Source of the DNA: a virus
Lineage: Duplodnaviria; Heunggongvirae; Uroviricota; Caudoviricetes
Virus record (IMG/VR): IMGVR_UViG_3300021256_000075
Coordinates: 1-64,000 of that record
Direction: 5' to 3' (one strand)
Length of the DNA stretch: 64,000 nt
The notes below the pieces were generated by a model. The model did not search any database, had not been told where the DNA came from, and saw only the letters and a program-made list of their open reading frames with translations. Each line of letters begins with the position of its first letter. Positions within the stretch are counted from its first letter, which is position 1. The position numbers and the translations under genes are program-made. Positions 921-55,423 of this stretch are shown piece after piece.

Positions 921-926
921 TAGGTT

Positions 927-1955: not shown

Positions 1956-1973
1956 TGGGGGAGGTGATGCACA

Positions 1974-2866: not shown

Positions 2867-2886
2867 GAAAAAGGAGTGGTATCACA

Positions 2887-4110: not shown

Positions 4111-4187
4111 TAAGACCGGACAATATGAACAGGAGAGCGATGCCTTACGGCATCCTCTCCTGATTTTTATGAAAGAGGAGGGTAGAG

Positions 4188-5333: not shown

Positions 5334-5346
5334 GAGGAGAAAATAA

Positions 5347-5589: not shown

Positions 5590-5737
5590 TTACCAATTGA
5601 AAGATGATGCATAGATGACGGTACAGGCACTCATCGCCAATTTATCGGAGAGTCCATGACGGATAGAGGGTAAGAAAGGTTCTCAAAACACCGACTCGGT
5701 AAAATGCTCAATGCGCAAAAAAATCTCGTAAAACATA

Positions 5738-5766
5738 TTGACAATTATAATATATTTGTATATTAT
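5738..5766 (+). promoter_or_regulatory. sigma-70 type promoter upstream of lysis cassette A
   Basis: TTGACA-17bp-TATTAT. Confidence 0.45.
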
Positions 5767-5967
5767 AGCCTCATGCGGATGTTGAATATAGGGGGATCCT
5801 TAAGGTTCTCCCTTTTCGCATTGGTTACCAACTTGGAGGACGAAAGAATGAGCAGAAAAAATGGCCCATACATAATACCGACAGAGCGGATGACAATTCA
5901 TGCAATCGAACCATCTATTAAGGATCCAGGCAGAAAAAGGAAGTCCCACAGAGAGAGAAGGATCAAA

Positions 5968-6054
5968 ATGATCGCAACTGGGATTGCATTCTTTATGCTT
6001 GGCACGCTTCTGGTTGGATTTATGCTTGCAGTTTTTGCGGCTGTCGGAATTTGA
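5968..6054 (+). CDS. small single-TM peptide (28 aa) immediately upstream of endolysin A
   Basis: atg 5968 after RBS agaaggat; MIATGIAFFMLGTLLVGFMLAVFAAVGI; analogous peptide precedes endolysin B. Confidence 0.3.
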   Translation: MIATGIAFFMLGTLLVGFMLAVFAAVGI

Positions 6055-6064
6055 CAGAAGGAAG

Positions 6065-6895
6065 GTGGTAACCATCGCCACGATTAGCCTGGATAAATTT
6101 CTTGAATGCCTGAAAGAGAATGCGGCACGCATTAAAGACTATGATTACGGACATGACGGAAGTGATGGTACTAGCGACTGCGTGGGCTATGTTATCGGTG
6201 CGCTGAGGCTCGCCGGTATCAACTATAAGGGGACACACGGGAGCAATTATTTTGAGAGAAAGTGCACGATTGACGTCCATCGTGTAACAAACGCAGATCA
6301 GCTGGAGCTTGGGGAGGTTGTCTACAAGGCGTATGAGCCAGGTGAATCCGGGTGGGATCTTCCCAGCAGTTACTTCAGAGATCCTGATCAGAACGATTAT
6401 TATCACATCGGCGTTGTGACGAGTGTGAATCCGCCGGTCATCTCGCATTGTTCAACCGGCGGCATGCACTATGACAACAGTCTTGGAAAATGGAAGTACG
6501 CCGGATGGTGTATATATGTACAGGGAGGGAAAATCTTGAAACCGCCATATATTGCCAGTGTAATCACCCAGAAGGGATCTCTCAACATCCGCTCGGGCCC
6601 CGGAACGGAGTATCCGAAGATCGGGAGCGTTCCGAAAGGTGCATCTGTCACGGTCAAGACACACCGGGAAGAGTGGGATTTTATCGAGTATGCCAATACC
6701 CAGGGGTATGTAAGCAATCAGTACCTGCAGCCGATAAAAGAAATTCCGGATGATCCGACACCTACGCCGGAACCGGATCCGGAAGATCCGACAATGATTA
6801 TTCTGAAGATCCCGGCTGAAACAGCACGGATGTGGGCAGAGGTACTCAGCCAAATTGTGGCTGTACTAAACGAGGGAAAAACCAATGGAGACTAG
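6065..6895 (+). CDS. endolysin: NlpC/P60-like cysteine peptidase domain plus C-terminal SH3b domain
   Basis: Catalytic-Cys context SDCVGYV; C-terminal GSLNIRSGPGTEYPKIGSVPKGASVTV SH3b pattern; homolog of CDS 44265-45077; start uncertain (GTG 6065 or upstream TTG 5984). Confidence 0.55.
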   Translation: MVTIATISLDKFLECLKENAARIKDYDYGHDGSDGTSDCVGYVIGALRLAGINYKGTHGSNYFERKCTIDVHRVTNADQLELGEVVYKAYEPGESGWDLPSSYFRDPDQNDYYHIGVVTSVNPPVISHCSTGGMHYDNSLGKWKYAGWCIYVQGGKILKPPYIASVITQKGSLNIRSGPGTEYPKIGSVPKGASVTVKTHREEWDFIEYANTQGYVSNQYLQPIKEIPDDPTPTPEPDPEDPTMIILKIPAETARMWAEVLSQIVAVLNEGKTNGD

Positions 6896-7145
6896 TGTTA
6901 TGGCAGCTGTCATCAGCGTTGTCGGATCGATCATCGTGGCAATGATATCCTTCTACGCCAACCGAAAGGGTGCGAAAGAAGCATCGGAAACCAATGCCAA
7001 ACTGATTGCTTACAGGATACAGGAACTCGAAAAAAAGCAGGATAAACATAACAGCATGATTGAAAGAACCTTCAATCTGGAAGGAAAAATGACCGAAGTG
7101 GAGCACGATATACGCGACATCAAAAGGAGGATGGAACTGTCATGA
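6885..7145 (+). CDS. lysis-cassette membrane protein (N-terminal TM helix plus coiled coil; XhlA-like/holin accessory)
   Basis: Homolog of 45074-45325; between lysin and holin in both cassettes. Confidence 0.45.
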   Translation: METSVMAAVISVVGSIIVAMISFYANRKGAKEASETNAKLIAYRIQELEKKQDKHNSMIERTFNLEGKMTEVEHDIRDIKRRMELS

Positions 7146-7474: not shown

Positions 7475-7750
7475 ATGGAAGAGAAAGAGATCCAGATTTC
7501 GTACATCGTTCATGAGTCAGAAGTAGCCAGGCTGGAACGGGTCATCCGAAGGCTGTGGATTCTCTGCATCATCATATTCGTTGCATTGATCGCAACAAAC
7601 GCAGCCTGGATCTGGTACGAGTCCAGGTACATTGATGAAGTTGTGACCGAAACATACACGGCCGATACAGATGGAGGCGGGACGGCAATCGCAAACGGAG
7701 AAGGAAGTGTTGTGATCAATGGCGACAGCAACGAGAACAAAAGTAACTAA
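7475..7750 (+). CDS. cassette protein 1: small single-TM protein
   Basis: RBS aggag 7 nt before ATG 7475; homolog of 52555-52830 (HESEVARLER...LWILCIIIF...VVTETYTA). Confidence 0.45.
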   Translation: MEEKEIQISYIVHESEVARLERVIRRLWILCIIIFVALIATNAAWIWYESRYIDEVVTETYTADTDGGGTAIANGEGSVVINGDSNENKSN

Positions 7751-11882: not shown

Positions 11883-12806
11883 ATGGCTCTTACTGATGAA
11901 GCAAACGGAATGGGAACGACTATGCTTGTGCAGCCTTCCAACTACAACGGGAACGGCGGAGACGGATTCTTCGGTGCCAATGGCATTTGGTTTCTGATCC
12001 TCTTCATCCTGCTTGGAGGCTGGGGGAACGGCTTCGGCGGAGGCTTTGGAAACGGCTACGGTGCCAATGCAATGGCCGATATGTACCCGTGGTTTAATCA
12101 GTCCAATCAGATCAACGGTGGTTTCCGCGACCAGATGATCAGCGGGAAGATCGATGCGATCAACAACAACCTTGTTTCCGGATTTGGTGACGTGCAGCTC
12201 GGAATTGCCGGCATCAACCAGAACATCTGTCAGACCGGCAACGGAATCGTGTCGGCGGTGACGGGTGCGCAGAATGCCCTGACATCCCAGATGTATGCCA
12301 ATCAGATCGCTGATATGGAACGGTCCTTCGCCGCCCAGACAGCTCAGACAGCCGGCATGACCGCTCTTCAGGCGCAGCTGGCGCAGTGCTGCTGCGACAA
12401 TCGCGCCGCAACGGCCGACCTGAAATACACGGTAGCAACCGAGAACTGTGCGGACCGGACTGCGGCTGCCCAGAACACCCGTGACATTATCGATGCGCAG
12501 ACCAGGGGAACCCAGGCAATTCTGGACAAACTGTGCGCTCTTGAGCTGGATGGCGTGAAGAACCAGCTGGCACAGGCACAGCGTGAGAATGTCGGGCTCC
12601 AGAATCAGCTGAACATGGCGAACCTTTCCGCTTCCCAGGCGGCTCAGACTGCGGCGTTCCAGCAGGGAATGAACAACGAGGTGGATGCCTTGTATAACCG
12701 TCTCAAAAATTGCCCGGTCCCCAGTCAGCCGGTATATGGCAATCAGCCGATTTTCACATGCGGCGGTAACAGCGGCTGCGGCTGCGGCTGCGGCGCGATG
12801 GCGTAA
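11883..12806 (+). CDS. cassette protein 7: Gly-rich membrane protein with Cys-rich C-terminus ending CGCGCG
   Basis: N-terminal GIWFLILFILLGGWGNGFGGGFGNGYG TM/Gly-rich; QCCCDN, C-terminal TCGGNSGCGCGCGAMA encoded by (GCTGCG)n; homolog 54488-55411. Confidence 0.55.
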   Translation: MALTDEANGMGTTMLVQPSNYNGNGGDGFFGANGIWFLILFILLGGWGNGFGGGFGNGYGANAMADMYPWFNQSNQINGGFRDQMISGKIDAINNNLVSGFGDVQLGIAGINQNICQTGNGIVSAVTGAQNALTSQMYANQIADMERSFAAQTAQTAGMTALQAQLAQCCCDNRAATADLKYTVATENCADRTAAAQNTRDIIDAQTRGTQAILDKLCALELDGVKNQLAQAQRENVGLQNQLNMANLSASQAAQTAAFQQGMNNEVDALYNRLKNCPVPSQPVYGNQPIFTCGGNSGCGCGCGAMA

Positions 12807-12818
12807 GAGGTGAGAGAC

Positions 12819-13274
12819 ATGGCAGAGTTTGTGCAGAACGAGATCCAGCTTGTACAGCCGAATCAGAACGTTTTACTACAGTCCTCCATTCCGTGCAACA
12901 GAGGGTATGTCTATCACCGGAATGGATCCGGAATCCTAACTCTCCGTGGCGTTGTAAACGGTGCGTGCGGATGCTTCGCACGCTATCAGGTCACCTTCAA
13001 TGGAAACATCGCCGTTCCGGAAGATGGAACAGTCGGACCGATTGCCATTGCGCTGGCACTGGATGGTGAACCCATTCAGACCAGCCGGGCAATCGTAACG
13101 CCTGCGGCAGTCGATGAGTACTTCAACGTCACATCCACGGCAATCATCACGATCCCGAGAGGATGCTGCGAGAACCTGTCCGTGGAAAATGTGTCGTTCG
13201 GCGCGACTGCAGCAGATGCACCGACAGCCATCAATGTCCAGAACGCCAACCTGACCGTATCGAGAATAGCCTGA
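12819..13274 (+). CDS. cassette protein 8: Cys-containing beta-rich protein (152 aa)
   Basis: NGACGCFARY...PRGCCENLS; homolog 55424-55888; ATG 12819 with RBS agaggtgagag. Confidence 0.5.
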   Translation: MAEFVQNEIQLVQPNQNVLLQSSIPCNRGYVYHRNGSGILTLRGVVNGACGCFARYQVTFNGNIAVPEDGTVGPIAIALALDGEPIQTSRAIVTPAAVDEYFNVTSTAIITIPRGCCENLSVENVSFGATAADAPTAINVQNANLTVSRIA

Positions 13275-23442: not shown

Positions 23443-23696
23443 GCAAATTAGTAAAAGCGAATCGTCAATGCAAAACTTGCTTTGCAAACCATAACCGAAA
23501 AGGATGCAGAGCTTTGGCGTGGCCGGACTATGAGGACGGGCAATGTCCATTCTTCAAAACGCGGGAACAGCATATAAAAGATGTTCAGTACTGGGAGAAT
23601 CTGGCAAAGGCAAGAGGCAAAATGACTGCGAATGGCATTTATTACAAACGAGCAAGAATGCAGGAGAACAAAGAGATACTGGAGGATGCAGAATGA
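23439..23696 (+). CDS. Cys-containing small protein
   Basis: CKTCFANHNRKGC...CPFF. Confidence 0.35.
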   Translation: MSKLVKANRQCKTCFANHNRKGCRALAWPDYEDGQCPFFKTREQHIKDVQYWENLAKARGKMTANGIYYKRARMQENKEILEDAE

Positions 23697-24349
23697 AAAT
23701 TGAGGAACAGCGGTACAGGATTCTTACACCAGAGTATTTTCTCATTTACGGAAACTTGACTATTATCGAAGAAGCGGCAAGGACTTGCTACAAATCGGAA
23801 GGAAAAACGGTAGCAGATGCAGAGCACTCTTCCGCACAAAGGTTAATTCGAAGCTGTATCAAACGTGGGCATGAATCAGTTCTGGAGCATTCCATCTTGT
23901 CTGTGCGCTTTGTCACGAATAGGGCTATTGCACAGCAGTTAACGAGGCACAGACTTTGCGCATTCTCAATGGAAAGCCAGAGGTATTGCAATTACACGCA
24001 GGACAGGTTTTCAAACGAGATATCCTTTATCAAGCCGCTTTGGTGGTATGGTGCAAGCGATACGCAAAGAATAGCGTGGGCAGAAGCATGCGAACATGCT
24101 GAGTACGATTACAACAATTGCATCAAGGACGGCATGAGGCCGGAAGAAGCGCGTGAATTCCTGCCGAACTGCACCAAGACGGAATTGGTCATGTCTGCGA
24201 ACTTGCGCGAATGGCGACACATTCTGAAGCTCAGAACGGCAAAGGAAGCTGACCCGATGATTCGGAACTTATGCACACCCTTGCTCAAGGAGCTTGCGGA
24301 GAAACTGCCTTGCATCTTTGAGGATATCGCTGTACAGCTCAAAAACTGA
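23693..24349 (+). CDS. thyX: flavin-dependent thymidylate synthase ThyX
   Basis: ThyX signature RHRLCAFSMESQRY (RHRx7-8S) plus conserved H/E context; ATG 23693 after RBS ggagga. Confidence 0.65.
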   Translation: MKIEEQRYRILTPEYFLIYGNLTIIEEAARTCYKSEGKTVADAEHSSAQRLIRSCIKRGHESVLEHSILSVRFVTNRAIAQQLTRHRLCAFSMESQRYCNYTQDRFSNEISFIKPLWWYGASDTQRIAWAEACEHAEYDYNNCIKDGMRPEEAREFLPNCTKTELVMSANLREWRHILKLRTAKEADPMIRNLCTPLLKELAEKLPCIFEDIAVQLKN

Positions 24350-24436
24350 AAAAAGTTGCAAAAACATTCAAAAGTCGGCGGTATTTGGCGGTTCACGGTT
24401 GTTTATGTTGGTTAAATATGTGCTATAATACTATCG

Positions 24437-24545
24437 TCAACAGAGTATGGGTGTTGCACACATGAAGAGTTTCTTCCTCTAACAAACTTTTCTATTTCCC
24501 GAAAAGGCTCACGAGTTATGGTCATCTCGTGGGCCTTTTACTTTT
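24437..24545 (+). ncRNA. small transcription unit (about 105 nt) upstream of the tRNA
   Basis: Extended -10 TGCTATAAT at 24421-24429; strong terminator ggctcacgag...ctcgtgggcc plus T-run at 24506-24545. Confidence 0.3.
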
Positions 24546-24592
24546 ATTTACAATTGGCACAAAGCGAACAATTCGCACCACTTTAAAAAAAC

Positions 24593-24667
24593 AGTGGATT
24601 AGCCAAGAGGTAAGGCATGGGACTTTGAATCCTGTATCCGTAGGTTCGAATCCTACATCCACCGCCA
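24593..24667 (+). tRNA. tRNA-Gln (anticodon UUG), CCA encoded
   Basis: Manual cloverleaf: acceptor agtggat/atccacc with A1:C72 mismatch, U8, D-arm with A14/GG, anticodon loop CUUUGAA, T-arm gtagg-TTCGAAT-cctac, G73, CCA. Confidence 0.5.
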
Positions 24668-24689
24668 TAACACTAGCAAGGAGCGATGA

Positions 24690-25154
24690 ATGGACGAATT
24701 AAAACTCGTTTATATTCCTGTTGATGAGCTTACACCGTATGAGAGGAATGCAAGGAAACATACTGAGCATGACATTGAAGCGATCAAGGAAAGCATTAAA
24801 CAGTCTGGAGGTTTCAACGACCCTATTGGAATCTGGGGAAAGAATAATTTAATCGTTGAAGGGCATGGCAGACTTATCGCCGCAAAAGAGCTAGGAATGC
24901 AGGAAGTGCCGTGTATCCGCCTTGACCATATGACAGACGAGGAACGGAAGAAATATGCCTTACTGCATAACCAAACAGCATTGCTCTCTGAATGGGACAG
25001 TTTAAAGCTTGCGGAAGAACTGAACGGCTTGGATTTTCAAGGCTTTGATTTTGAATTCTATACACCTTCCGAAAATATTGTGGGGGGGGTACTGATGATA
25101 ATGCAAGATATACCGGAGAAACCAAAATACCTCAGTACGAGCCTTATCGGATGA
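24690..25154 (+). CDS. ParB-like nuclease domain protein
   Basis: ParB N-terminal nuclease motifs (YERNARKH, GHGRLIAAKELG); G8 tract at 25082-25089 is in frame (VGGV). Confidence 0.55.
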   Translation: MDELKLVYIPVDELTPYERNARKHTEHDIEAIKESIKQSGGFNDPIGIWGKNNLIVEGHGRLIAAKELGMQEVPCIRLDHMTDEERKKYALLHNQTALLSEWDSLKLAEELNGLDFQGFDFEFYTPSENIVGGVLMIMQDIPEKPKYLSTSLIG

Positions 25155-25441
25155 ATGTTGGAATTGAGCAATGCATAGACAGGCAGAAAGCAAACGAACT
25201 TGTCGCAGAAATACAAGCTTCTGGAGTTACCGATGAAGAAAAAGAATTTCTGTGCAGTGCGGCTATGCGACACAATGTTTTTAACTATGCAATCATCGCA
25301 GAGTATTATGCAAATGCATCTCATGAAATGCAGAAACTTATGGAGAAATCTGCTCTTGTGATAATTGACGTTGACGATGCAATAGCAAATGGATATGCCA
25401 AGTTATCGAAGGCAATGGCGGAAATGAGAGATGAAAAATGA
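25151..25441 (+). CDS. hypothetical protein
   Basis: ATGA coupling to the ParB-like gene. Confidence 0.35.
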   Translation: MNVGIEQCIDRQKANELVAEIQASGVTDEEKEFLCSAAMRHNVFNYAIIAEYYANASHEMQKLMEKSALVIIDVDDAIANGYAKLSKAMAEMRDEK

Positions 25442-26289
25442 GAGATGATTTTGCAATTTTCATTCTTACTCATGGACGCGCAGACCGTGTTGAAACTGTG
25501 AAAACTCTTGAAAGATGCAATTATACTGGCAAATGGTATATTGTCATTGACAATGAAGATGATTCTGAAGACGAATACCGAAGAATATTTGGAAACAGAG
25601 TATTACAGTTTGATAAACTAGCTGTATCGAAGACTTTTGACACAATGGATTTATCCGATGACAGAAGAACAATTGTATATGCAAGGAATGTGTGCTTTGA
25701 TCTCGCAAAACAGGTCGGAGTACGCTTTTTTCTTGAACTTGACGATGATTATAAAAGCTTTGAATGGAGATATATAGAGGACAATAAATTTAGAGGCAAA
25801 GCAGTTACCGACATGGATAAAGTTTGCAATATCATGCTCGATTTTCTTGAAGAGAGCAATGCAGATACTGTTGCAATGACACAAGGCGGTGACTTCATAG
25901 GCGGCAAAGATGGTGGAAATGTTTCAAAAGGCGTTTTAAGAAAGGCTATGAATTCATTTTTCTGTGATGTTAATAAGCCGTTTAAATTTATTGGACGAAT
26001 CAATGAAGATGTGAACACTTATGTTTCGCTTGGTTCTGTTGGAAAGCTCTTCTTTTCTGTTACTGATGTATCATTTACACAGGAAACAACGCAGAAAAAC
26101 AAAGGCGGCATGAGTGATGTATATCTCGATATGGGGACATATTTGAAAAGCTTTTATACAGTGATGGTTGCTCCATCATGCGTGAAAATTGCTATGATGG
26201 GAGACAAACATAGAAGAATACATCATAGAATCAATTGGGATTGTGCAGTCCCAAAGATATTGAATGAAAAGTGGAGAAAAAAGGGGTGA
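25438..26289 (+). CDS. hypothetical protein (283 aa)
   Basis: ORF between ParB-like and terminase genes; function not recognisable. Confidence 0.4.
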   Translation: MRDDFAIFILTHGRADRVETVKTLERCNYTGKWYIVIDNEDDSEDEYRRIFGNRVLQFDKLAVSKTFDTMDLSDDRRTIVYARNVCFDLAKQVGVRFFLELDDDYKSFEWRYIEDNKFRGKAVTDMDKVCNIMLDFLEESNADTVAMTQGGDFIGGKDGGNVSKGVLRKAMNSFFCDVNKPFKFIGRINEDVNTYVSLGSVGKLFFSVTDVSFTQETTQKNKGGMSDVYLDMGTYLKSFYTVMVAPSCVKIAMMGDKHRRIHHRINWDCAVPKILNEKWRKKG

Positions 26290-26322: not shown

Positions 26323-26829
26323 TTGACGGATGATGGACTGGCAGAAATACGAAGTTGGGCTAGACATGGCGACACGGATGAAATGATCGCCAAACGCATC
26401 GGAATATCAAGAAGCTATTTTTATACGTGGCTCAACAAATATGCTGAGATAAAACAAGCCGTAAAAGAAGGTAGACGGATTGAGCTTGTAGAGCAGGAAG
26501 ATGCTTTAAAAAAAGCAGGGCTTGGATACAAGATCACTGTCAAAAAGCCTATCAAGCTGAGAGAAGAAAAACAGAAAGCCGGAGAAGGCAAGATCGTAAC
26601 AGAGCGGATTGAGTACGCTGACGAGGAATTGTATTTTCCGCCAAACGTAGCCGCTCTTATTTTCTACTTAAAGAACAGAGCGCCGGACTATTGGAAGGAC
26701 AAGCCGAAAGACAACATTGAGGAAAGCGATGACCCGTTGAAAGAACTGCTTAAGCGGCTGAACGATGAAGCTGAGAGGGACAAGGATGAGAAAAAAACAG
26801 CAGACACTGACAAGCCTCTTGACTCCTAA
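26323..26829 (+). CDS. terminase small subunit
   Basis: N-terminal HTH (IAKRIGISRSYFYTWLNKY), charged C-terminus, directly upstream of TerL. Confidence 0.5.
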   Translation: MTDDGLAEIRSWARHGDTDEMIAKRIGISRSYFYTWLNKYAEIKQAVKEGRRIELVEQEDALKKAGLGYKITVKKPIKLREEKQKAGEGKIVTERIEYADEELYFPPNVAALIFYLKNRAPDYWKDKPKDNIEESDDPLKELLKRLNDEAERDKDEKKTADTDKPLDS

Positions 26830-27967
26830 ACAGCGGCAGTTCTGGAATAATTGCACACACCGCTATAACGTAAAAAGCGGCGCTACACGCTCCGGGAAAA
26901 CTTACATGGATTATTACATGATTCCTCGAAGAATCATAGAGCGCAAGGGAAAAGACGGCTTATACGTGATTCTGGGCAACACCAAAGGAACGCTACAAAG
27001 AAACATCATTCTTCCGATGCAGGAAAAATACGGAGTTGACCGTGTTTCTGATATCAGATCGGATAACACTGCAACTATGTTTGGCGAGAAGGTTTACTGC
27101 TTGGGCGCGGACAAGACGAACATGGTGGACAGAATCAGAGGTTCTAGCATTAAATACTGCTATGGCGATGAGGTTGTAACGTGGAGCAAAGACGTTTTTG
27201 ATATGCTCAAGTCACGTCTTGACAAGCCTTATTCCTGCTTTGACGGTTCATGCAATCCCGATTCTCCACAACACTGGTTTCACGACTTTCTTGAATCCGA
27301 TTCGGATATCTATCTTCAAAATTACACTCTTGATGACAATCCTTTTCTGGATGATAGCGTAAAAGAGAATATAAAGCGAGACTATGCAGGAACAGTACTT
27401 TATGACAGGTATGTTCTAGGATTATGGGTTGCATCCGAAGGAGCTTTGTTTACCACTTACCCGGAATACACGGATGACGAAACGTTACTGAGAGATGGAA
27501 TAGCGCATATCGATGCATCTTACGGAGGCGAGGACTTTACAGCGTTCACGTGCGGAAAAAGGCATGGTGATACGCTTTTTTTGTATGGCAGGTTGTGGCA
27601 CAAACATGTTGATTTAGTCCTTGATACTTGTATCCGGGAAGCAAAAAGATTGATGTGTGCACCGATCTTAATGGAATCAAACGCGGATAAAGGCTACCTT
27701 GCAAAAGAAATTGTTCGGAGAGGCTATAGCGCCAGAACATACAACGAAAGCATGAACAAGTTCTTGAAGATATCTTCTTATCTGCGTAAATGGTGGGGAA
27801 ACGTTGTTTTTCTGAACGGTACGGATAAGGCGTACATAGCGCAGATATTGAGCTATACAGAATCCGCAGAGCATGACGATGCCCCGGATAGTTGTTCCTG
27901 CGTTGCACGCCATTTTGACAGACGCAATGACACTGGCGATGAATACAAATCACCTTTTGGAGGATAA
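26765..27967 (+). CDS. terminase large subunit (PBSX-like family)
   Basis: Walker A-like KSGATRSGKT, ATPase and nuclease halves, about 400 aa; start 26765 or 26786. Confidence 0.65.
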   Translation: MKLRGTRMRKKQQTLTSLLTPKQRQFWNNCTHRYNVKSGATRSGKTYMDYYMIPRRIIERKGKDGLYVILGNTKGTLQRNIILPMQEKYGVDRVSDIRSDNTATMFGEKVYCLGADKTNMVDRIRGSSIKYCYGDEVVTWSKDVFDMLKSRLDKPYSCFDGSCNPDSPQHWFHDFLESDSDIYLQNYTLDDNPFLDDSVKENIKRDYAGTVLYDRYVLGLWVASEGALFTTYPEYTDDETLLRDGIAHIDASYGGEDFTAFTCGKRHGDTLFLYGRLWHKHVDLVLDTCIREAKRLMCAPILMESNADKGYLAKEIVRRGYSARTYNESMNKFLKISSYLRKWWGNVVFLNGTDKAYIAQILSYTESAEHDDAPDSCSCVARHFDRRNDTGDEYKSPFGG

Positions 27968-27971
27968 AAGC

Positions 27972-28283
27972 ATGGCAGATACTGTTGCAAAAGTAAAGAT
28001 TGGACTTTCGGTAGACGAGGAAACCGCGGAAACCTGTCTGAGGATTGTTGAGCTTTATGTAAACGAAAACGATATGGAGATTGAAGAAACCGTTGACGAT
28101 AACGGCTATTCTCATTTTGAGTTCCATGAATTTTTTGACGATGAAGATGACGAAGACGAACTGACCGTTGAAACGATTGCGAACATGCTTGATGAAATGG
28201 CAGATGCCGGATACATTCGCATTTGTGGCGGTAACGATGCTTTCTCCGTTGCGGAGAGTTATGTAGAGGATGCTGATGAATGA
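27972..28283 (+). CDS. acidic hypothetical protein
   Basis: Asp/Glu-rich; between terminase and portal. Confidence 0.35.
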   Translation: MADTVAKVKIGLSVDEETAETCLRIVELYVNENDMEIEETVDDNGYSHFEFHEFFDDEDDEDELTVETIANMLDEMADAGYIRICGGNDAFSVAESYVEDADE

Positions 28284-29671
28284 CTTACGAACGGACTTTT
28301 CAAGATTTTGAAATTGAAAAGGCTAGAGGAAGAATAACGGACTTTTTAAGAGAAGTTATCAACGCACACAAGGATAGTGAAGCTCTGAAGATTGCGCTAG
28401 ATGCGGATGCATATGACCATCGGGAAAACATCACTATAAGGAAGTTCGAAAAAAAGCTCTTCACAACAAATGGGCATAAAGTTGCGGACTACACCTCATC
28501 GAACATGAAGGTATGTAGCAACTTTTTCAACATTCTGAATACTCAGCGCGTTTCGTACTCACTGGGCAATGGAGTTACTTTTTCGGACACAAAAATCAAA
28601 GATAAACTTGGCATTGATTTTGATACGGTACTCAAAAAGGCCGCTAGATACGCTCTTATTCACGGCGTATCTTTTTTGTTTTTCAATAACGATCACTGCC
28701 ACCTGTTCAAGTTGACGGAGTTCGTCCCGCTGTACGATGAAGCAACGGGAATGCTCCGGGCAGGAGTACGCTATTACCAGATTGATCAAAGAAAGCCGTT
28801 GACTTGCGTCCTGTATGAGGAAGACGGATATACAACTTACAGGACGAAAAACCGTGGAGACAAACTTTATGAGATTGAGCCGAAACGGGCATACAAGCAA
28901 ATTGTTTCTTATTCTGTAGCGGAAGGTGAAACCGTTATCGGCGAGGAAAATTATGGCGCTCTTCCGATTGTTCCGTTGTGGGGTTCAGATCTGAAGCAAT
29001 CCACATTAATTGGAATGCGCGAACAGATTGATTCCTATGACTTGATTCGTTCCGGCTTTGCCAACGATCTTCTGGACTGCGCACAGATTTATTGGATTGT
29101 CTCCGGCTTTATGGGAATGACTGACAATGAGCTTTCGCAGTTCCGCGACAGGCTCTTATTCAATCATATTGCCCTTGCTGACACGGACAACGGAACGGTA
29201 ACACCTTACACACAGCAGATACCATTCGAGGCTAGAACAGGCTATTTAACGCAAATACGCAAGCAAATTTACGATGACTTCGGAGCTTTGGACGTAACGA
29301 ATTTCGCATCTGGCGAAAAAACTGCAACAGAGATTCAAGCGGCCTATCAGCCTATGGATGATATGGCGGATGATTTCGAGTATCAAATCATTCAAGCCGT
29401 TCAACAGATTCTGAAACTGCTAGGAATGGAAGATACACCGATATTCAAGCGGAATAAGCTCACGAATCCTCTGGAGCAGGTGCAAATGGTAATTCAAGAG
29501 GCTGAATATCTGGATGATAGAACAATCCTTGAAAAACTCCCGAACATCACTCCAGACGAGGTTGAGGAAATCTTGAAGCGCAAGGATGCGGAAGACGCAA
29601 ACAGAATGGCACAGTTTGATACTGGGAATCAGCAGGAAAACGAAGAAGACGAAGACGAGACTGAGGAATAA
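28280..29671 (+). CDS. portal protein
   Basis: 463 aa, follows TerL, acidic C-terminal tail; SPP1 gp6-like arrangement. Confidence 0.6.
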   Translation: MTYERTFQDFEIEKARGRITDFLREVINAHKDSEALKIALDADAYDHRENITIRKFEKKLFTTNGHKVADYTSSNMKVCSNFFNILNTQRVSYSLGNGVTFSDTKIKDKLGIDFDTVLKKAARYALIHGVSFLFFNNDHCHLFKLTEFVPLYDEATGMLRAGVRYYQIDQRKPLTCVLYEEDGYTTYRTKNRGDKLYEIEPKRAYKQIVSYSVAEGETVIGEENYGALPIVPLWGSDLKQSTLIGMREQIDSYDLIRSGFANDLLDCAQIYWIVSGFMGMTDNELSQFRDRLLFNHIALADTDNGTVTPYTQQIPFEARTGYLTQIRKQIYDDFGALDVTNFASGEKTATEIQAAYQPMDDMADDFEYQIIQAVQQILKLLGMEDTPIFKRNKLTNPLEQVQMVIQEAEYLDDRTILEKLPNITPDEVEEILKRKDAEDANRMAQFDTGNQQENEEDEDETEE

Positions 29672-29694
29672 GCTGTATTTGAGCTTGGAGGCAT

Positions 29695-31401
29695 ATGAGT
29701 TATTACGGGGATAGCGCAAGCGAGAAAGCCGCAATGAGGCTTGAAGCAAAGATAAAGCGCATATATGCCGAAGCGGCAAGAGACGTTGAGCAAAAGATAC
29801 TCCAGTATACGGACACTTTTAAAAAACGTGACGCCGAAATGCAGAAGAAGCTCAAGAACGGTGAAATATCGCAAGCTGATTACGATAATTGGAAAAGTCG
29901 AATTGTTTTCCGTGGAAAGCGGTGGAACAATGTCCGTGATACTATTTGGTCACAGCTCTATCACACTCGCCAAACAACAACTGATATGATAAATGACGAA
30001 AGAAAGGCAATGTTTCAAAACGTTGTCAACTACAGCCAATATCAAATAGATAAGGATTTCAACTTCAGCCTTTCTTTCAATATTTACGACAATGCAACCG
30101 TTACAAGATTAATCAAGGAAGACCCAGACCTTGTGCCGGATGTAAAGTACCCTGTTCCCGGCAGAGATTACGCATGGTCGAAGAAACAGATTGCAAGCGC
30201 GGCTACTCAAGGCGTTATTCAAGGTGAAAGCATCCCGGAAATCAGCAGAAGAATAGCAAACAAGCTTTCGAGCGCGAACATGGTATCAATGACACGGTGT
30301 GCAAGAACTGCGATGACTGGAGCGCACAACTCCGGCAGAATCGAGGCTATGCACAATGCTATCGATTTAGGTATCAAAGTGCAGAAGCTTTGGATTGCCA
30401 CTTTGGACAGCAGGACAAGAGACTGGCATCGTGATTTGGATGGACAACTTGCGGAGGTGGACGAGCCTTTTAATTCGCATTTCGGAGAAATTATGTACCC
30501 CGGTGACCCAAATGCTCGGCCTGCGAACGTATGGAATTGCCGCTGTTCTCTAGGTTGGGAGTATCCAGAATACAGAAACCAGTACGATACCAGAGCGGCG
30601 CGAGAAGAAGAAGCGAATAACGGTGGTCAAGTTGAAGAAATTCCATACATGAGCTATAATAAATGGGTACAGTGGGTTAAAGATGGCAAACCAGAAATCA
30701 AAAAGGAAATACCGAAACCGAAAGAACCAGAAATAGATCAAGTAATACAAAACTTCTTGAAAGAGTGTGAACAAACAAAAATCAAGTATCATGAAGTCAA
30801 AAAACTTGATACAGATTGGGCAAATGATAATGGAATATGGGCAATGAGTGAAATTTTTGAAAGGTTGCATGGCGGAGATTTAACATCTGGCTCATGTGCC
30901 TCTCTAGCTCTTGCATATGCAGGCAACAGATGCGGTTACGATGTTATAGACTTCCGTGGCGGCGCGAGCCAAACTAAATTTTCATCTGGTTACAATCTTA
31001 GAAAATTATTCAATGCCACTGGTGTTGAAACAATTACGGAAAAGGATACAAATGATATAAAAGCATGTGAACGCCTATTCAATCAGATGAAAGATGATAA
31101 AGAGTATATCCTTTGCACAGGAAAACATGCATCGATAGTGAGAAAGCAGAATGGCTCAGTGCAATACTTAGAATTGCAATCTGCGACTAACGGAGGATGG
31201 CACGACTTTGAAAAAGATACTTTAAAATGGCGTTTCGGTTGTCAGAGAAGCCATTCAACTTATGGCATGAAATATGAGAGATCAAATGAGCTTGTTGATG
31301 TTGAATCGTTTAAAAATTTTGTAGGGTTCGATAAAGTACTTGGATATATAAACACTCCAGAAAATGAGCAGAAAAAAGGTAGAGCGGGACATGAAAAGTA
31401 A
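29695..31401 (+). CDS. head morphogenesis protein (MuF/SPP1 gp7 domain) fused to a C-terminal papain-like toxin-like domain
   Basis: MuF motifs LDSRTRDWHRDLDGQ and NCRCSLGW; about 240-aa C-terminal extension with TSGSCASLALAY (Cys) and GKHASIV (His). Confidence 0.6.
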   Translation: MSYYGDSASEKAAMRLEAKIKRIYAEAARDVEQKILQYTDTFKKRDAEMQKKLKNGEISQADYDNWKSRIVFRGKRWNNVRDTIWSQLYHTRQTTTDMINDERKAMFQNVVNYSQYQIDKDFNFSLSFNIYDNATVTRLIKEDPDLVPDVKYPVPGRDYAWSKKQIASAATQGVIQGESIPEISRRIANKLSSANMVSMTRCARTAMTGAHNSGRIEAMHNAIDLGIKVQKLWIATLDSRTRDWHRDLDGQLAEVDEPFNSHFGEIMYPGDPNARPANVWNCRCSLGWEYPEYRNQYDTRAAREEEANNGGQVEEIPYMSYNKWVQWVKDGKPEIKKEIPKPKEPEIDQVIQNFLKECEQTKIKYHEVKKLDTDWANDNGIWAMSEIFERLHGGDLTSGSCASLALAYAGNRCGYDVIDFRGGASQTKFSSGYNLRKLFNATGVETITEKDTNDIKACERLFNQMKDDKEYILCTGKHASIVRKQNGSVQYLELQSATNGGWHDFEKDTLKWRFGCQRSHSTYGMKYERSNELVDVESFKNFVGFDKVLGYINTPENEQKKGRAGHEK

Positions 31402-31609
31402 CTGGGCATTCTACAAAAATGAAGAAGACGATGTTATTTGGTGGGTTGATAATAGTGAGGATGTAATTGGAGAGCATTTATTTACATTCGATAAAAAGAA
31501 AATTTACAATCTTTTTGCCGATTATCCAAATAACATGACGGCAGAAGAAGTTGCTATTTTTGATAAAGAAAACCCGAAATGGGCTGAATTCTTCTTCGAC
31601 AGGAAGTGA
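31364..31609 (+). CDS. putative immunity protein for the MuF C-terminal domain
   Basis: Small gene immediately downstream, the usual position of polymorphic-toxin immunity genes. Confidence 0.3.
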   Translation: MSRKKVERDMKSNWAFYKNEEDDVIWWVDNSEDVIGEHLFTFDKKKIYNLFADYPNNMTAEEVAIFDKENPKWAEFFFDRK

Positions 31610-31613
31610 TAAT

Positions 31614-32024
31614 ATGCCTGCGTCTATGGATTTTCGTATTGCCATTGATAATACTGGCAAAGTTGGAGAAGAGCTTGAACTTGCCATTGTTAGAGCTTTG
31701 GAAATATGCGGTGGCAAGGCGGAAACATATGCAAAGCTTAATTGTCCTGTTGATACTGGCCTTTTGAGAAACAGTATAACGCATGCTGTTGAGGGGAATG
31801 CGCCGTCTGTTCAATCTTATAAGGCAAACAAGGGAGATGGTCAAGGCTCTTACTCCGGCTCAATCGGTAAAAAGGGCGATCATACAGTTTATGTTGGTTC
31901 AAACGTTTCTTATGCCACGGACAATGAATTGCACCACAAAACAAAAAGCGGATTCATACGGCAGTCTTTGGAAAATCACATGGAAGAATATAAAACCGTG
32001 ATTCAAAGCGAATTGAGCAAATAA
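31614..32024 (+). CDS. HK97 gp10-like virion protein
   Basis: NCPVDTGLLRNS motif; ATG 31614. Confidence 0.4.
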   Translation: MPASMDFRIAIDNTGKVGEELELAIVRALEICGGKAETYAKLNCPVDTGLLRNSITHAVEGNAPSVQSYKANKGDGQGSYSGSIGKKGDHTVYVGSNVSYATDNELHHKTKSGFIRQSLENHMEEYKTVIQSELSK

Positions 32025-32272
32025 ATGAATTTAGGAGTTTTTGCACACACCGCATGCTCAAGAAACCCTATGGAAAACCAAGTAGAAGACGGAGATGAAA
32101 GGCCAAAGCATTGCCCACTAAAAGAAGTTAAATAGGAATTTAATATGTGGAGAAAGTTTTACGATGGATGGTTTGAATATTACTACAATATTGAAACTGG
32201 CGAGCGTAAATTCAAACTTGAGCCTTGCGACAAATTGGTTGATTAAATAAAACAATAAAAATCAATAATCTG

Positions 32273-32312
32273 AATGCAATTCGAGATGATTTGTTTCGAA
32301 TTGCATTTTTTC
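32273..32312 (+). terminator. rho-independent terminator (a second one lies at 32322-32357)
   Basis: tgcaattcga...tcgaattgca hairpin plus T6. Confidence 0.45.
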
Positions 32313-32414
32313 TTTGGTAATTACAAGCCACACGAAGCACTGTGCGGCTTGTTTTTATATACAAACAATTCTCAAAGGGCGAAGAACAGCCCCAAAGCAA
32401 TGGAGGATTAAGGA

Positions 32415-33020
32415 ATGGCAAATTTTAGGCGAAAAGAAATTCGCGAAATCATCGGAGAAGCATGCACTGACGAGATGGAAAACAGACTAATTGCTCTGCA
32501 TTTAAGTGTGGTTGACCCTCTGAAGGATGAGCTTACCGATGCAAAGGCAAACGCAGATAAGGTTGCCGATCTTCAGAAGCAGTTGGAGAAGGCACAGAAA
32601 GACCTGCAGGATGCCGGAGACTGGAAAGCCAAGTTCGAGAAAGAACATTCGGATTTTGACGAGTACAAAAAACAAATTGAGGAAGGAAAGGCTGTAGACA
32701 CTGTAAAGGGGCTTTATCGGACACTTTTGAAAGAAGCCAAAGTGGATGATAAGCGCATCGATTCCATTCTGAAGGTCACTGATTTCAGCGGCATGAAGGT
32801 GGACAAAGATGGAAAGCTTGAAGGTGCTGACAAACTGACCGAATCAATCAAAAAGGACTGGAGCGACTTTATTAATGTTACAAGCACGAAGGGTGCTGAC
32901 GTTGAAACGCCTCCAGAAGGCAATGGCAACAAGATGACGCGTGAAGAGATCATGAAGATCAAAGACACTGCGAAACGTCAAGAGGCCATTGCAAACAACT
33001 TAGATATTTTCAACCAATAA
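32415..33020 (+). CDS. scaffolding protein
   Basis: K/E/D-rich coiled coil directly upstream of the capsid gene. Confidence 0.5.
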   Translation: MANFRRKEIREIIGEACTDEMENRLIALHLSVVDPLKDELTDAKANADKVADLQKQLEKAQKDLQDAGDWKAKFEKEHSDFDEYKKQIEEGKAVDTVKGLYRTLLKEAKVDDKRIDSILKVTDFSGMKVDKDGKLEGADKLTESIKKDWSDFINVTSTKGADVETPPEGNGNKMTREEIMKIKDTAKRQEAIANNLDIFNQ

Positions 33021-33033
33021 AGGAGTGATTTAA

Positions 33034-34062
33034 ATGGCCAAAGCCAATCTTACCAAGTCTGCTCAGATTCAGACAACTGCGCGTGAAGTTGATTTCGTAA
33101 CCCGTTTTGATAATAACTGGGATCACCTCCGCGATATCATGGGTATTACCCGTCTAATTCGCAAAACTCCCGGAACTGTGCTGAAGAGCAAATACGCGGA
33201 AGTTACCCTTCAGAACGGAGCAATTGCAGAGGGCGAGGAAATTCCGTATTCTCAGGCCCAAGTTAAGACAAAGGATTATGCAAGCATCAACGTCGAAAAA
33301 TATGCAAAGGCGGTTACCATTGAGGCTATTAACGAGCATGGTTACGATGATGCCATCAACCTTACGGATGAACAGTTTCTTTTCGAGCTTCAGAACAATG
33401 TTACCGATCGTTTCTATACCTTTCTGCGCGGCGGCACTCTGATCAAAGCCAAGGCCACTTTCCAAGCCGCTCTCGCTGAGGCACAGGGACAGGTGCGGAA
33501 CAAGTGGAAGAAGATGCACAAGGGAATCACCGAGATTGTTGGCTTCTGCAACATTCTTGATGCTTATGACTATCTTGGAGCGGCGGCTATCACTGTGCAG
33601 AACGAGTTCGGAATGAACTACATTGAGAACTTCCTCGGTTATCGCCGTCTCTTCCTGTGCTCTGAGGCTGAGATTCCTTCCGGAGTTGTCCTTGCTACCC
33701 CCGTGGAAAACCTCATTCTTTACTATGTTTCTCCCGATGATTCCGACTTTGCCCGTGCCGGACTGGTTTACACCACTGATGGAGTTACGAACCTCATCGG
33801 TTTCCACGTGCAGGGCAATTATGGCACTGCTGTTTCCGAGTCGTTTGCTCTGATGGGAATGACGCTCATGGCTGAGTACCTTGATGGCATTGCATCCGTT
33901 GATATCGGTACTGAAACTTATACGGCGGTTCAATCTCCTGCAAAGGCAAACCTTGGCACATATTTCGAGAAGGCCGCTGACAATACCTACTTTAAAACTT
34001 TGGATACGGATATCGTGTCCGGCAAGACTTATTACACCCGTTCCGTGACTCGTGCCGCCTAA
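33034..34062 (+). CDS. major capsid protein
   Basis: 342 aa after scaffold, RBS aaaggagtg. Confidence 0.55.
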   Translation: MAKANLTKSAQIQTTAREVDFVTRFDNNWDHLRDIMGITRLIRKTPGTVLKSKYAEVTLQNGAIAEGEEIPYSQAQVKTKDYASINVEKYAKAVTIEAINEHGYDDAINLTDEQFLFELQNNVTDRFYTFLRGGTLIKAKATFQAALAEAQGQVRNKWKKMHKGITEIVGFCNILDAYDYLGAAAITVQNEFGMNYIENFLGYRRLFLCSEAEIPSGVVLATPVENLILYYVSPDDSDFARAGLVYTTDGVTNLIGFHVQGNYGTAVSESFALMGMTLMAEYLDGIASVDIGTETYTAVQSPAKANLGTYFEKAADNTYFKTLDTDIVSGKTYYTRSVTRAA

Positions 34063-52554: not shown

Positions 52555-52830
52555 ATGGAAGACAAGATGATTCCCTACATTGCGCACGAATCCGAAGTTG
52601 CAAGACTTGAACGAATAATTAAGAGGTTATGGATTCTGTGCATCATTATTTTCGCGGCGCTGATTGCCACGAACGGAGCTTGGTTGTGGTACGAGAGCCA
52701 GTATGTTGATGAAGTTGTAACGGAAACTTATACGGCTGAATCTGAAAGCGGTGGCACTGCTATTGCGAACGGAGAAGGAAGTGTAGTAATCAATGGCGAA
52801 AGCAACAAGAACAAAGGTATCGAAAACTAG
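52555..52830 (+). CDS. cassette protein 1 (copy 2): small single-TM protein
   Basis: Homolog of 7475-7750. Confidence 0.45.
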   Translation: MEDKMIPYIAHESEVARLERIIKRLWILCIIIFAALIATNGAWLWYESQYVDEVVTETYTAESESGGTAIANGEGSVVINGESNKNKGIEN

Positions 52831-53231: not shown

Positions 53232-53396
53232 ATGAAAAACGATTTAGAGGCCATTTTAAGCGATTTAAGAGCAATGGGCATTTCGAAGGAAATCTGCGAA
53301 ACGATAAAACGCTATTCCAAGGCCGGAGCTTTGGAGTACGCCAAAGCACTGCTGATGGAGGACGGGCATGAGTGCATGGAAAGAGTTCCGCAATAA
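53232..53396 (+). CDS. cassette protein 3 (copy 2): small helical protein (54 aa)
   Basis: MKNDLEAILSDLRAMGISKEICETIKRYSKAGALEYAKAL; not in ORF track. Confidence 0.3.
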   Translation: MKNDLEAILSDLRAMGISKEICETIKRYSKAGALEYAKALLMEDGHECMERVPQ

Positions 53397-53754
53397 CCCT
53401 CTTGGAAAAAGTGTAGGTGATTGCTCAATTCGCGCCATATCTGCGGCACTGGGTATTGATTGGGATAAAGCATATGCATTGCTTTGCTCAAAAGGTTTCG
53501 CTATGGCAGATCTTCCGAACGCGGACTCCGTGTGGGGAAATGTTCTGAAAGAAAGAGGATTTACAAGGGAAGTAATTCCAAACTCCTGCCCAGAGTGCTA
53601 CACATTCGAAGATTTTTGCCGTGAACATCAAAAAGGTATTTACGTGTTGGGGACAGGGAATCATGTGGCAACTGTCAAAGACGGAGGACAGCTTTTTGAT
53701 TCGTGGGACAGTTCCAAGGAAGTTCCCGTATTTTTCTGGAGAAAGGACGATTGA
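53368..53754 (+). CDS. cassette protein 4 (copy 2): papain-fold Cys-His-Asp enzyme
   Basis: GDCSIRAISAAL / GNHVATV / DSWDSS. Confidence 0.45.
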   Translation: MSAWKEFRNNPLGKSVGDCSIRAISAALGIDWDKAYALLCSKGFAMADLPNADSVWGNVLKERGFTREVIPNSCPECYTFEDFCREHQKGIYVLGTGNHVATVKDGGQLFDSWDSSKEVPVFFWRKDD

Positions 53755-55411: not shown

Positions 55412-55423
55412 TGAGGTGATACT

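Follow-up and report, generated by a model that had tools for sequence, protein, structure and literature searches.

A predicted papain-like cargo domain on a phage MuF head protein and its DUF7675 neighbour as a candidate effector-antidote pair

Described MuF toxins and related systems

MuF toxins are described as typical of temperate phages. Polymorphic toxins of this kind in phages and prophages were reported by Zhang et al. 2012 (PMC3482391) and Jamet et al. 2017 (PMC5576092), and a characterised example is MuF-Apk2 with IapK/Aph1 from a pneumococcal prophage, for which the identity of the binding-type immunity protein IapK is 35–38% (PMC12226406). MuF-borne toxins are already known, and in the literature searched the (p)ppApp synthetase Apk2 is the only experimentally studied cargo. 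MuF-Tox-PL1 was described in PMC3482391, with Zhang et al. 2012 as the only paper on Tox-PL1 in the literature searched, and Cpe1-Cpi1 pairs a papain-like (C39-like) interbacterial toxin with an immunity protein (PMC12136450). Many C-terminal extensions of MuF proteins are still listed as “unknown”; for one of the larger of these (1055 clusters), we provide here a modelled fold, predicted catalytic residues, and a putative cognate partner, together with a first functional hypothesis for the Pfam family DUF7675.

The gene in question lies in a 64,000-nucleotide stretch of phage DNA (the window), which is itself part of a 149-kb scaffold; no integrase or recombinase domain was found among the part of the window ORFs that was scanned. 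The locus resembles described MuF polymorphic toxins in that the carrier follows right after the portal gene, the C-terminal enzymatic cargo is swapped, a small gene tracks the cargo, and relatives occur in streptococcal prophages. It differs from them in that the Cys-His cargo is not among the listed toxin domains, is absent from Pfam, and occurred on MuF-type carriers only (83 long members, best 150 of 1055 hits), and it differs from MuF-Apk2/IapK in that DUF7675 is far more conserved than IapK. Compared with Tox-PL1 (PF15644, Gln_amidase, papain-fold toxin 1; prototype OspI), no HMM match was obtained with the window protein (E <= 0.1) or with 44 family members (E <= 10); a profile alignment with hhalign gave a probability of 42.7% (E 2.5e-4) and aligned SC with NC, H with H, and ExQ with DxQ. 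The Cys-His domain also differs from Tox-PL1 in its conserved C-terminal tail, in an additional conserved motif (DFRGGxS), and in its partner, which is DUF7675 rather than an unrelated 68-aa ORF. Cpe1-Cpi1 and the Citrobacter rodentium CdiA-CT (PDB 8ssm/8ssk) show no detectable sequence similarity to this system and rely on T6SS or CDI, whereas we propose delivery by the phage capsid; SpvD (PDB 5lq7), a Salmonella cysteine hydrolase and type III effector acting on eukaryotic cells, is alike only at the level of the fold (8% identity).

The carrier gene and its neighbourhood

The gene product is a MuF/SPP1-gp7 protein with a separate C-terminal domain (Table 1). All motifs quoted in the original prediction (DSRTRDWHRDLDG, NCRCS, TSGSCASLALAY, and GKHASIV) fall within a single plus-strand ORF (29695–31401, 568 aa), and the proposed MuF/SPP1 gp7 identity of its N-terminal part agrees with a Pfam match to Phage_Mu_F (PF04233) on aa 164–286 (E 1.2e-17, 65.1 bits against a cut-off of 29.6) and with its place after the SPP1-type portal gene. 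In the NCBIfam search, TIGR01641 scored 34.7 bits on this protein, below its cut-off of 39.65. The gene order, from the SPP1-type portal gene through the MuF gene to the scaffold and capsid genes, is that of a head module. Short MuF homologues of 320–335 aa stop at the equivalent of aa ~337, the linker region at the start of the C-terminal domain model has a pLDDT of 74–75, and the cargo-swap breakpoint in one relative (P0309) lies just upstream of the linker, after RAAR[ED]E.

Further downstream, the gp10-like gene is the conserved next gene and stands directly 3' of the MuF gene in a cargo-less relative. Two hairpins (at about 32272–32318 and 32323–32359), each followed by a U-run, separate it from the scaffold gene; the region has a minimum free energy of −38.6 kcal/mol (z −6.8), and none of 200 shuffles folded equally well. 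Two tandem terminators had been predicted here (32273–32357) and their placement called unusual: the hairpins are real, but the placement is not unusual, because an annotated terminator occurs at the equivalent site, between the gp10-like and scaffold genes, in Butyrivibrio phage Ceridwen, a related phage that is in culture. A search of Rfam returned nothing in 29000–33500.

Table 1. Features of the MuF locus in window coordinates
Feature	Position	Strand	Basis or remark
SPP1-type portal protein gene, immediately upstream of MuF gene	28280–29671	+	Pfam SPP1_portal (PF05133), E 1.5e-35
Whole MuF-cargo gene, 568 aa	29695–31401	+	ORF; identical protein called on metagenome scaffold ERZ28612970 scaffold_165
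MuF/SPP1 gp7-like carrier module, aa 1–337, with DSRTRDWH and NCRC motifs	29695–30705	+	Pfam Phage_Mu_F match; short homologue ends
Pro/Lys/Glu-rich linker PEIKKEIPKPKEPEI, aa 338–352, carrier-cargo joint	30706–30750	+	Sequence; low pLDDT; cargo-swap breakpoint
Papain-like Cys-His hydrolase cargo domain (predicted), aa 353–568	30751–31398	+	
Catalytic residues (predicted): Cys401; His478; Glu493/Gln495	30895–30897; 31126–31128; 31171–31179	+	
Conserved C-terminal tail LGYINTPENEQKKGRAGHEK	31339–31398	+	Family pattern LGYINTxxxxQxKGxxGxx[K/R]-COOH
DUF7675 gene, 72 aa, candidate antidote/immunity protein	31391–31609	+	Pfam DUF7675 (PF24723); longest ORF starts at 31364
HK97 gp10-like gene, 136 aa	31614–32024	+	Pfam HK97-gp10_like, E 1.8e-4; PHROG 5; synteny
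33-aa ORF MWRKFYDGWFEYYYNIETGERKFKLEPCDKLVD	32145–32246	+	Called as gene on source scaffold; no Pfam match
Two tandem intrinsic-terminator-like hairpins with U-tracts	32272–32359	+	Operon boundary before scaffold/capsid genes
Scaffold gene	32415–33020	+	Pfam Phage_scaffold, E 4.5e-11
Major capsid gene	33034–34062	+	DNA matches to annotated major capsid genes

The Cys-His domain and DUF7675

The C-terminal domain (aa ~353–568, ~215 aa) was modelled by AF2 as a papain-like fold with a pLDDT of 90.8, and the layout of the papain superfamily (clan CA) is present, i.e., an alpha+beta fold with the Cys at a helix N-terminus and the His on a beta-strand. The residues that do not vary across 142 relatives drawn from 50%-identity clusters include T397, G399, S400, C401, R421, S425, H478, E493, and Q495. 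The separate domain with Cys and His residues, as originally proposed, is in line with this model, and the Cys/His conservation whose absence would have pointed away from that proposal was found at both Cys401 and His478. PHROG 7104, to which no function is assigned there, covers this separate conserved domain (E 2e-41), and no Pfam family does so even at E <= 10 when 44 members are searched. NCBIfam and PADLOC gave no match for either the cargo domain or DUF7675, and matches of the domain to PDB chains at the sequence level were dismissed as chance (all E > 0.5). Its closest structural matches were cytoplasmic-type effectors, DUB-like enzymes, and C39 peptidases, and not wall hydrolases. The signature of the domain is SC...H...ExQ; peptidase, isopeptidase, and glutamine deamidase are conceivable activities for it.

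The family comprises 1055 representatives (clusters at 50% identity), with the domain at the extreme C-terminus throughout the members listed, and the hosts of the phages that carry it include Bacillota, Bacteroidota, Fusobacteria, Negativicutes, and Saccharibacteria, both Gram-positive and Gram-negative-type. Among the 83 long members in the best 150 of 1055 hits, the carrier domains were PF04233 (44 members), PF06152 (15), and PF25310 (4); recurrent carriers in this set were of MuF type only and were joined to the domain by variable linkers, and none had an N-terminus of LXG, Rhs, CdiA, or VgrG type. One member contains an XkdF protease domain. In two members the Cys-His domain is C-terminal to an ADP-ribosyltransferase domain, which hints at an accessory or processing role as opposed to a stand-alone toxin. 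Nearly all of 188 listed members end in Q-x-K-G-x-x-G-x-x-[K/R], and the few exceptions (e.g., P0041, P0044, and P0048) appear truncated or aberrant. That this tail is a mere by-product of the overlap with the DUF7675 start and ribosome-binding site was ruled out, as loci with DUF7675 on the opposite strand retain the tail; tentatively, this Gln/Lys-containing stretch may be an intrinsic part of the enzyme that regulates or modifies it.

The MuF part is combined with different cargoes in close relatives. Of its 120 closest N-terminal homologues, 61 were short, four carried the Cys-His domain, 10 carried Tox-PL1 (PF15644), seven an ADP-ribosyltransferase (PF03496), and two PF18810, and 36 had other extensions. 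The N-terminal part of P0309 is 93% identical to that of the window protein, yet its C-terminus is ART-like. The small downstream gene changes or vanishes with the cargo: a short MuF gene is followed directly by the gp10-like gene with no small gene between, after MuF-Tox-PL1 comes an unrelated 68-aa ORF, and after MuF-Cys-His comes DUF7675. These comparisons support the view that the MuF part behaves as a polymorphic-toxin carrier, and the swapping of cargo in close relatives, with DUF7675 tracking it, fits the earlier assignment of this locus to the MuF proteins that combine a polymorphic toxin domain with a small immunity gene.

The downstream gene had been described as an 81-aa gene (31364–31609) in the immunity position. 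The ORF, its position, and its linkage to the cargo held up, but its length is probably 72 aa: the start is most likely the second ATG at 31391 and not 31364, because the N-terminal nine residues of the 81-aa ORF are missing from most homologues, an AAAGG-type ribosome-binding site lies upstream of the second ATG, and the gene call on the source scaffold begins there. From 31391, the gene shares 11 nt with the 3' end of the MuF gene, stop codon included. The 81-aa ORF matched DUF7675 (PF24723) at E 3.2e-33 (113.8 bits; cut-off 27) and PHROG 6473 with E 1.4e-31, and a literature search on DUF7675 returned no papers. Mean pairwise identity was 0.60 for DUF7675 and 0.51 for the enzyme, with DUF7675 at 55–78% across phyla; immunity proteins of the binding type are typically far less conserved. 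A mirror-tree type test returned no usable signal that DUF7675 and the enzyme have diversified together (Spearman rho 0.25; −0.13 among pairs with unrelated carriers).

DUF7675 adjoined the Cys-His domain gene in all 81 viral loci examined and was paired with the domain in each of the 17 annotated phage records that carry it; 16 of these 17 domain-bearing relatives in the phage collection are streptococcal phage or prophage records. In the linkage set (68 unique enzyme/DUF7675 pairs in 36 clusters), DUF7675 was convergent to the enzyme gene in 12 pairs and therefore requires its own promoter there. The linkage is one-way, in that the enzyme was never without DUF7675 in the loci examined and DUF7675 was often without the enzyme, namely in 54 of 80 bacterial genome loci and in eight DUF7675-only phage records, all of them streptococcal satellites. 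One such satellite, Javan200, and the Cys-His prophage Javan215 come from the same host species, and their DUF7675 proteins share 90% identity. Another orphan copy, in S. infantis, neighbours ctsR. Masking was ruled out as a cause of the enzyme-less loci (a run of N in only one of the 54), and no known immunity family was matched among the neighbours of orphan DUF7675 genes.

Proposed role and competing explanations

[quoted passage not shown] In its favour are the domain architecture, the modelled fold, the invariance of the catalytic residues, the cargo swapping, and the strict one-way linkage of enzyme and DUF7675. If SPP1 gp7 and other MuF proteins are a guide, the first 337 aa would position a few copies at the portal within the capsid, and these would exit together with the DNA at infection. 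A flexible linker would hold the 215-aa papain-like cysteine hydrolase. Once in the cytoplasm of a newly infected cell, this enzyme would attack a target that is conserved across bacterial phyla. DUF7675, presumably translationally coupled to the enzyme gene, would neutralise the enzyme in the producing cell, and such an antidote, being useful alone, may have moved into bacterial chromosomes and phage satellites unaccompanied by the enzyme. Satellites travel in helper capsids, and these would hold the enzyme.

Several observations count against the cargo-antidote reading. The domain was found on MuF-type carriers only (83 long members, best 150 of 1055 hits); DUF7675 is more conserved than the enzyme and lacks co-diversification, unlike binding-type immunity proteins that track their toxins; two members have the domain after an ADP-ribosyltransferase; and the window ORFs scanned include no integrase, whereas MuF toxins are described as typical of temperate phages.

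A bolder version, which we put forward tentatively, is that the Cys-His domain and DUF7675 form an undescribed cross-phylum effector-antidote pair, in which the injected hydrolase would attack a universally conserved host component and the escaped antidote would protect bacteria and satellites or serve as an anti-helper weapon. The occurrence of the partner alone in satellites and chromosomes suggests that virion-delivered proteins exert selection on recipients.

It is unlikely that the Cys-His domain is instead an assembly or self-processing protease that acts on MuF, scaffold, portal, or co-packaged cargo in the procapsid or on ejection, with DUF7675 as a timing inhibitor until packaging and orphan copies that sabotage helper maturation. 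A processing role was proposed for MuF-fused Tox-PL1 by Zhang et al. (PMC3482391), PHROG 595 (“head maturation protease”) matches the MuF-cargo protein, and the interval from the portal gene to the capsid gene contains no separate gene for a prohead protease. The members with the domain downstream of an ADP-ribosyltransferase or with an XkdF protease domain, the strong conservation of enzyme and partner without co-diversification, and the known carriage of helper-interfering genes by satellites also speak for this explanation. However, the same module of portal, gp10-like, scaffold, and capsid genes occurs in close relatives that have an unrelated C-terminal domain or none, so the domain is dispensable for assembly, and it sits on three different carrier families via variable linkers, as a cargo would. 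SPP1-type scaffolds (PF06810), moreover, need no protease.

The enzyme might also be accompanied by a DUF7675 protein that is no inhibitor at all but serves as its cofactor or substrate, is co-injected with it, or is the product of an independent accessory gene (e.g., anti-defence) in a shared cassette, which we regard as rather improbable. The one-way linkage is the pattern expected of an antidote and not of a cofactor or substrate of a phage-specific enzyme; the slot is empty beside a short MuF gene and filled by a different small gene beside Tox-PL1; and adjacency is kept despite gene inversion. That the domain aids DNA entry by hydrolysing the cell wall, as a virion-associated enzyme of NlpC/P60, CHAP, or endoisopeptidase type, is very unlikely, given that MuF proteins are inside the capsid and not at the tail tip, that the structural matches described above are of cytoplasmic type, that a dedicated intracellular antidote kept by satellites and chromosomes would make no sense for an enzyme acting on the wall from outside, and that the domain occurs alike in phages of Gram-positive and Gram-negative-type hosts.

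Architecture and predicted fold of the Cys-His domain

The head-gene block of the window (see table) contains a 568-aa ORF in which every motif quoted in the original prediction was found. Short relatives of its N-terminal part, an SPP1 gp7-like minor head protein (MuF), stop at the equivalent of residue ~337, past which the window protein continues with a Pro/Lys/Glu linker and then a domain of ~215 aa (the Cys-His domain). No model covering this domain was found in Pfam, NCBIfam or PADLOC, and PHROG 7104 (unknown function) covers it with an E-value of 2e-41. A word-indexed search recovered 47 relatives, and 1055 were recovered when 1.84 billion representatives were searched with a profile, 841 of them at E <= 1e-30.

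Features of the window discussed in the text
Feature	Position	Strand	Remarks
ThyX gene	within 23543-26289		PF02511, E 2e-45
tRNA-Gln	24593-24667
ParB_N-like gene	24690-25154
TET-associated glycosyltransferase (TAGT)	25438-26289		PF20691, E 9e-41
Terminase large subunit	26765-27967	+	First in head-gene block
SPP1-type portal	28280-29671	+	Between terminase and 568-aa ORF
MuF-Cys-His ORF, 568 aa	29695-31401	+	Phage_Mu_F (Pfam) at aa 164-286, E 1.2e-17
Small ORF, DUF7675	31364/31391-31609	+	Pfam DUF7675, E 3e-33; PHROG 6473
HK97 gp10-like gene	31614-32024	+	Next after DUF7675 gene
33-aa ORF	32145-32246	+	Aromatic-rich, MWRKFYDGWFEYYYNIETGERKFKLEPCDKLVD; also a gene call on the source scaffold; immediately 5' of terminators
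Two hairpin terminators	between 32246 and 32415	+	Between 33-aa ORF and scaffold gene
Scaffold gene	32415-33020	+
Major capsid gene	33034-34062	+

The proposal of a C-terminal Cys/His domain suggestive of a thiol hydrolase or transferase was supported by both alignment and modeling. Across 142 representatives, T397, G399, S400, C401, R421, S425, H478, E493 and Q495 were invariant, as were G501, R513, F514, N553, T554 and G565. In an AlphaFold2 model of the domain (44 sequences; pLDDT 90.8, pTM 0.87), the Cys lies at a helix N-terminus, a strand begins with the His, and the adjoining strand terminates in Glu493, so that the predicted active-site layout is the papain arrangement. This layout and the invariant residues therefore identify the domain, at the level of the model, as a divergent papain-like cysteine hydrolase, for which peptide cleavage, isopeptide cleavage and glutamine deamidation are candidate activities.

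Among the matches listed, the domain formed the extreme C-terminus, to the last residue, in every member, and nearly all members shared the tail LGYINTxxxxQxKGxxGxx[K/R]-COOH (31339-31398 in the window), which includes a conserved Gln and Lys; the few exceptions (e.g., P0041, P0044 and P0048) appeared truncated or aberrant. The tail is not a by-product of overlap with the DUF7675 start, because it persists beside convergent DUF7675 genes; autoinhibition, self-modification or docking are possible roles. One homologue (P0048, 877 aa) carries the domain twice.

Exchange of cargo on the MuF carrier

By sequence comparison, the MuF part is a polymorphic carrier. Among its 120 closest homologues (window aa 1-330; 39-98% identity), 61 were short forms without an extension and 4 carried the Cys-His domain, with the others bearing Tox-PL1 (PF15644; 10), an ADP-ribosyltransferase (PF03496; 7), PF18810 (2) or other, unassigned extensions (36). 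One homologue (P0309), 93% identical to the window protein in its MuF part, departs from it directly beyond RAAR[ED]E (aa ~305), continuing as a C-terminus with an ADP-ribosyltransferase (ART)-like R / S-T-T / E pattern. Conversely, among 83 long members from the best 150 of the 1055 matches, the Cys-His domain occurred on three MuF-type carriers, namely PF04233 (44/83), PF06152 (15/83) and PF25310 (4/83), and non-MuF toxin carriers were not seen; in occasional members the domain is preceded by an intein or by an ADP-ribosyltransferase domain. In P0060 (850 aa), an allele 99% identical to the window gene, an intein (PF14890; aa ~277-545) splits the MuF domain's conserved NCRC motif, and P0073 is arranged likewise.

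Tox-PL1, a papain-like toxin domain with the signature NC-H-DxQ that is sometimes found on MuF (Zhang et al., PMC3482391, section 12), corresponds to present-day PF15644. Sister phages encode MuF-Tox-PL1, including one from the same metagenome (P0311) whose MuF part is 58% identical to that of the window protein. PF15644 gave no Pfam match to the window domain, and a profile-profile comparison with seven MuF-Tox-PL1 domains (probability 42.7%, E 2.5e-4) paired SC with NC, GxDV with GYDV, H with H and ExQ with DxQ. The Cys-His domain is thus probably a distant sister family of Tox-PL1 rather than a member of it. It represents a new family in the known class of MuF polymorphic toxins.

DUF7675 as a candidate antidote

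The gene 3' of the MuF-Cys-His gene encodes DUF7675, of which no mention was found in the literature searched. It had been proposed as an 81-aa gene (31364-31609) in the immunity position; the gene and its position hold, and a later start at 31391 (72 aa) is better supported, because residues 1-9 are absent in most homologues, an AAAGG-type ribosome-binding site lies directly 5' of that ATG, and the ATG gives an 11-nt overlap with the MuF stop codon. The gene caller placed the start at the equivalent position on the 149-kb metagenome scaffold, which encodes an identical MuF-Cys-His protein and on which the 33-aa ORF (no family match found) was also called. The overlap suggests translational coupling.

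A DUF7675 homologue lay directly 3' of the enzyme gene in 81/81 viral loci (80 from a viral-contig scan plus phage Javan278) and was present in 17/17 annotated phage records with the Cys-His domain, which lends weight to the proposed immunity role. One of the 17, the cultured Butyrivibrio phage Ceridwen, shares the window order of MuF-Cys-His, DUF7675, gp10-like gene, annotated terminator and scaffold. After removal of duplicates, 68 unique pairs (36 enzyme clusters at 70% identity) remained; the genes abutted or overlapped on the same strand in 56, and DUF7675 was inverted and convergent in 12, so adjacency is independent of co-transcription. The slot between MuF and the gp10-like gene tracks the cargo: it is empty beside a short MuF (P0314), holds an unrelated 68-aa ORF beside MuF-Tox-PL1 (P0311), has no called gene beside the ART-like form (P0309), and holds DUF7675 in the window.

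DUF7675 also occurs without the enzyme. When one genome per species was scanned, 80 loci were returned, in Bacillota, Bacteroidota, Fusobacteria, Negativicutes, Saccharibacteria and Mycoplasma-like organisms, with the enzyme within 3.5 kb in 26 and absent in 54; a check of these 54 loci rejected sequence masking as the cause. Orphan neighbors include a radical-SAM enzyme, HflX, a type ISP restriction enzyme and a serine recombinase. An Anaerovibrio contig (L112, 2947-3737) has two tandem DUF7675 genes with no enzyme gene found nearby. In Streptococcus infantis (L129, 1918-3728), DUF7675 closes an islet of four small genes, all unannotated, that is flanked by an ABC-transporter operon and ctsR-clpC; its neighbors matched no known immunity family, and it could be an orphan-immunity islet. 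The linkage is thus one-way, the enzyme never standing alone and DUF7675 often doing so, as is characteristic of toxin-antidote pairs and their "orphan immunity" genes.

All eight DUF7675-only records in the phage collection were Streptococcus satellite phages. The 9.6-kb satellite Javan200 has the gene close to its right end, and the gene product is 90% identical to the DUF7675 of the enzyme-bearing prophage Javan215; both elements come from S. equinus. Because satellites travel inside helper capsids, the capsid-borne enzyme of the helper would accompany them into each new cell, a direct reason to keep the antidote; alternatively, they may use DUF7675 against the helper rather than for self-protection. 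These satellites and orphan antidote genes offer a testable lead.

DUF7675 does not resemble a partner whose specificity is matched to the enzyme. Its divergence does not track that of the enzyme (rho 0.25), its mean pairwise identity is higher (0.60 vs 0.51), identity across phyla is 55-78%, and 48 sequences share invariant W27, G36, F40, D43, N49, F51, D53, Y54, P55, F66, D67, E69, P71 and W73. In contrast, orthologues of IapK, the binding-type immunity protein of MuF-Apk2, are far more divergent (35-38% identical), and the "universal", product-degrading Aph1 shows 43-57% identity (PMC12226406). Such conservation without enzyme-tracking makes a universal neutralizer conceivable, and DUF7675 may be one; possible modes are docking at the invariant active-site region or competition with substrate, the latter being how Cpi1 acts on Cpe1 (PMC12136450). 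Its predicted model (pLDDT 76.6) has a four-stranded sheet and two helices, and no structural neighbor of it was found.

The original observation is confirmed, and its reading as a MuF protein with a separate cargo domain and a small candidate immunity gene is supported by the architecture, the predicted fold, the invariant catalytic residues, the cargo swapping and the asymmetric linkage. As the most likely mechanism, we favor with moderate confidence a papain-like hydrolase, tethered to its MuF carrier, that would be packaged in the capsid and co-injected with the DNA as a putative toxin for a target in the recipient, while the small, apparently translationally coupled DUF7675 would neutralize it inside the producing cell. 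Sitting less easily with this mechanism are the unusual conservation of DUF7675, the restriction of the domain to MuF-type carriers among the members sampled, the conserved tail, and the failure to find an integrase among the scanned ORFs of the window.

Terminators and other features of the window

The tandem terminators had been regarded as unusually separating the toxin block from the scaffold and capsid genes. Both hairpins are real, each with a U-tract; the separation is not unusual, as a terminator and a promoter are annotated at the equivalent position in Ceridwen, and relatives have an intergenic gap there. Most simply, the hairpins would mark a boundary between low-copy (portal, MuF) and high-copy (scaffold, capsid) genes, and they do not single out the toxin block.

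Hypermodification of the phage DNA is suggested by a likely DNA-modification cluster (23543-26289; ThyX, ParB_N-like and TAGT genes) directly preceding the terminase gene. The GDCSIRA...GNHVATV...D pattern of a 128-aa ORF (53368-53754), for which Pfam gave no match, recalls a small papain-like protein of the Cys-His type. No integrase was found among the scanned ORFs of the window. Repeats ~45 kb apart share 76-78% identity (7550-7745 vs 52624-52819; 11949-12826 vs 54554-55431), and positions 1-7000 hold tail-fibre and SH3-lysin genes that belong to a different element. Tandem phage genomes, related yet different, seem to be covered by the window on the 149-kb scaffold.
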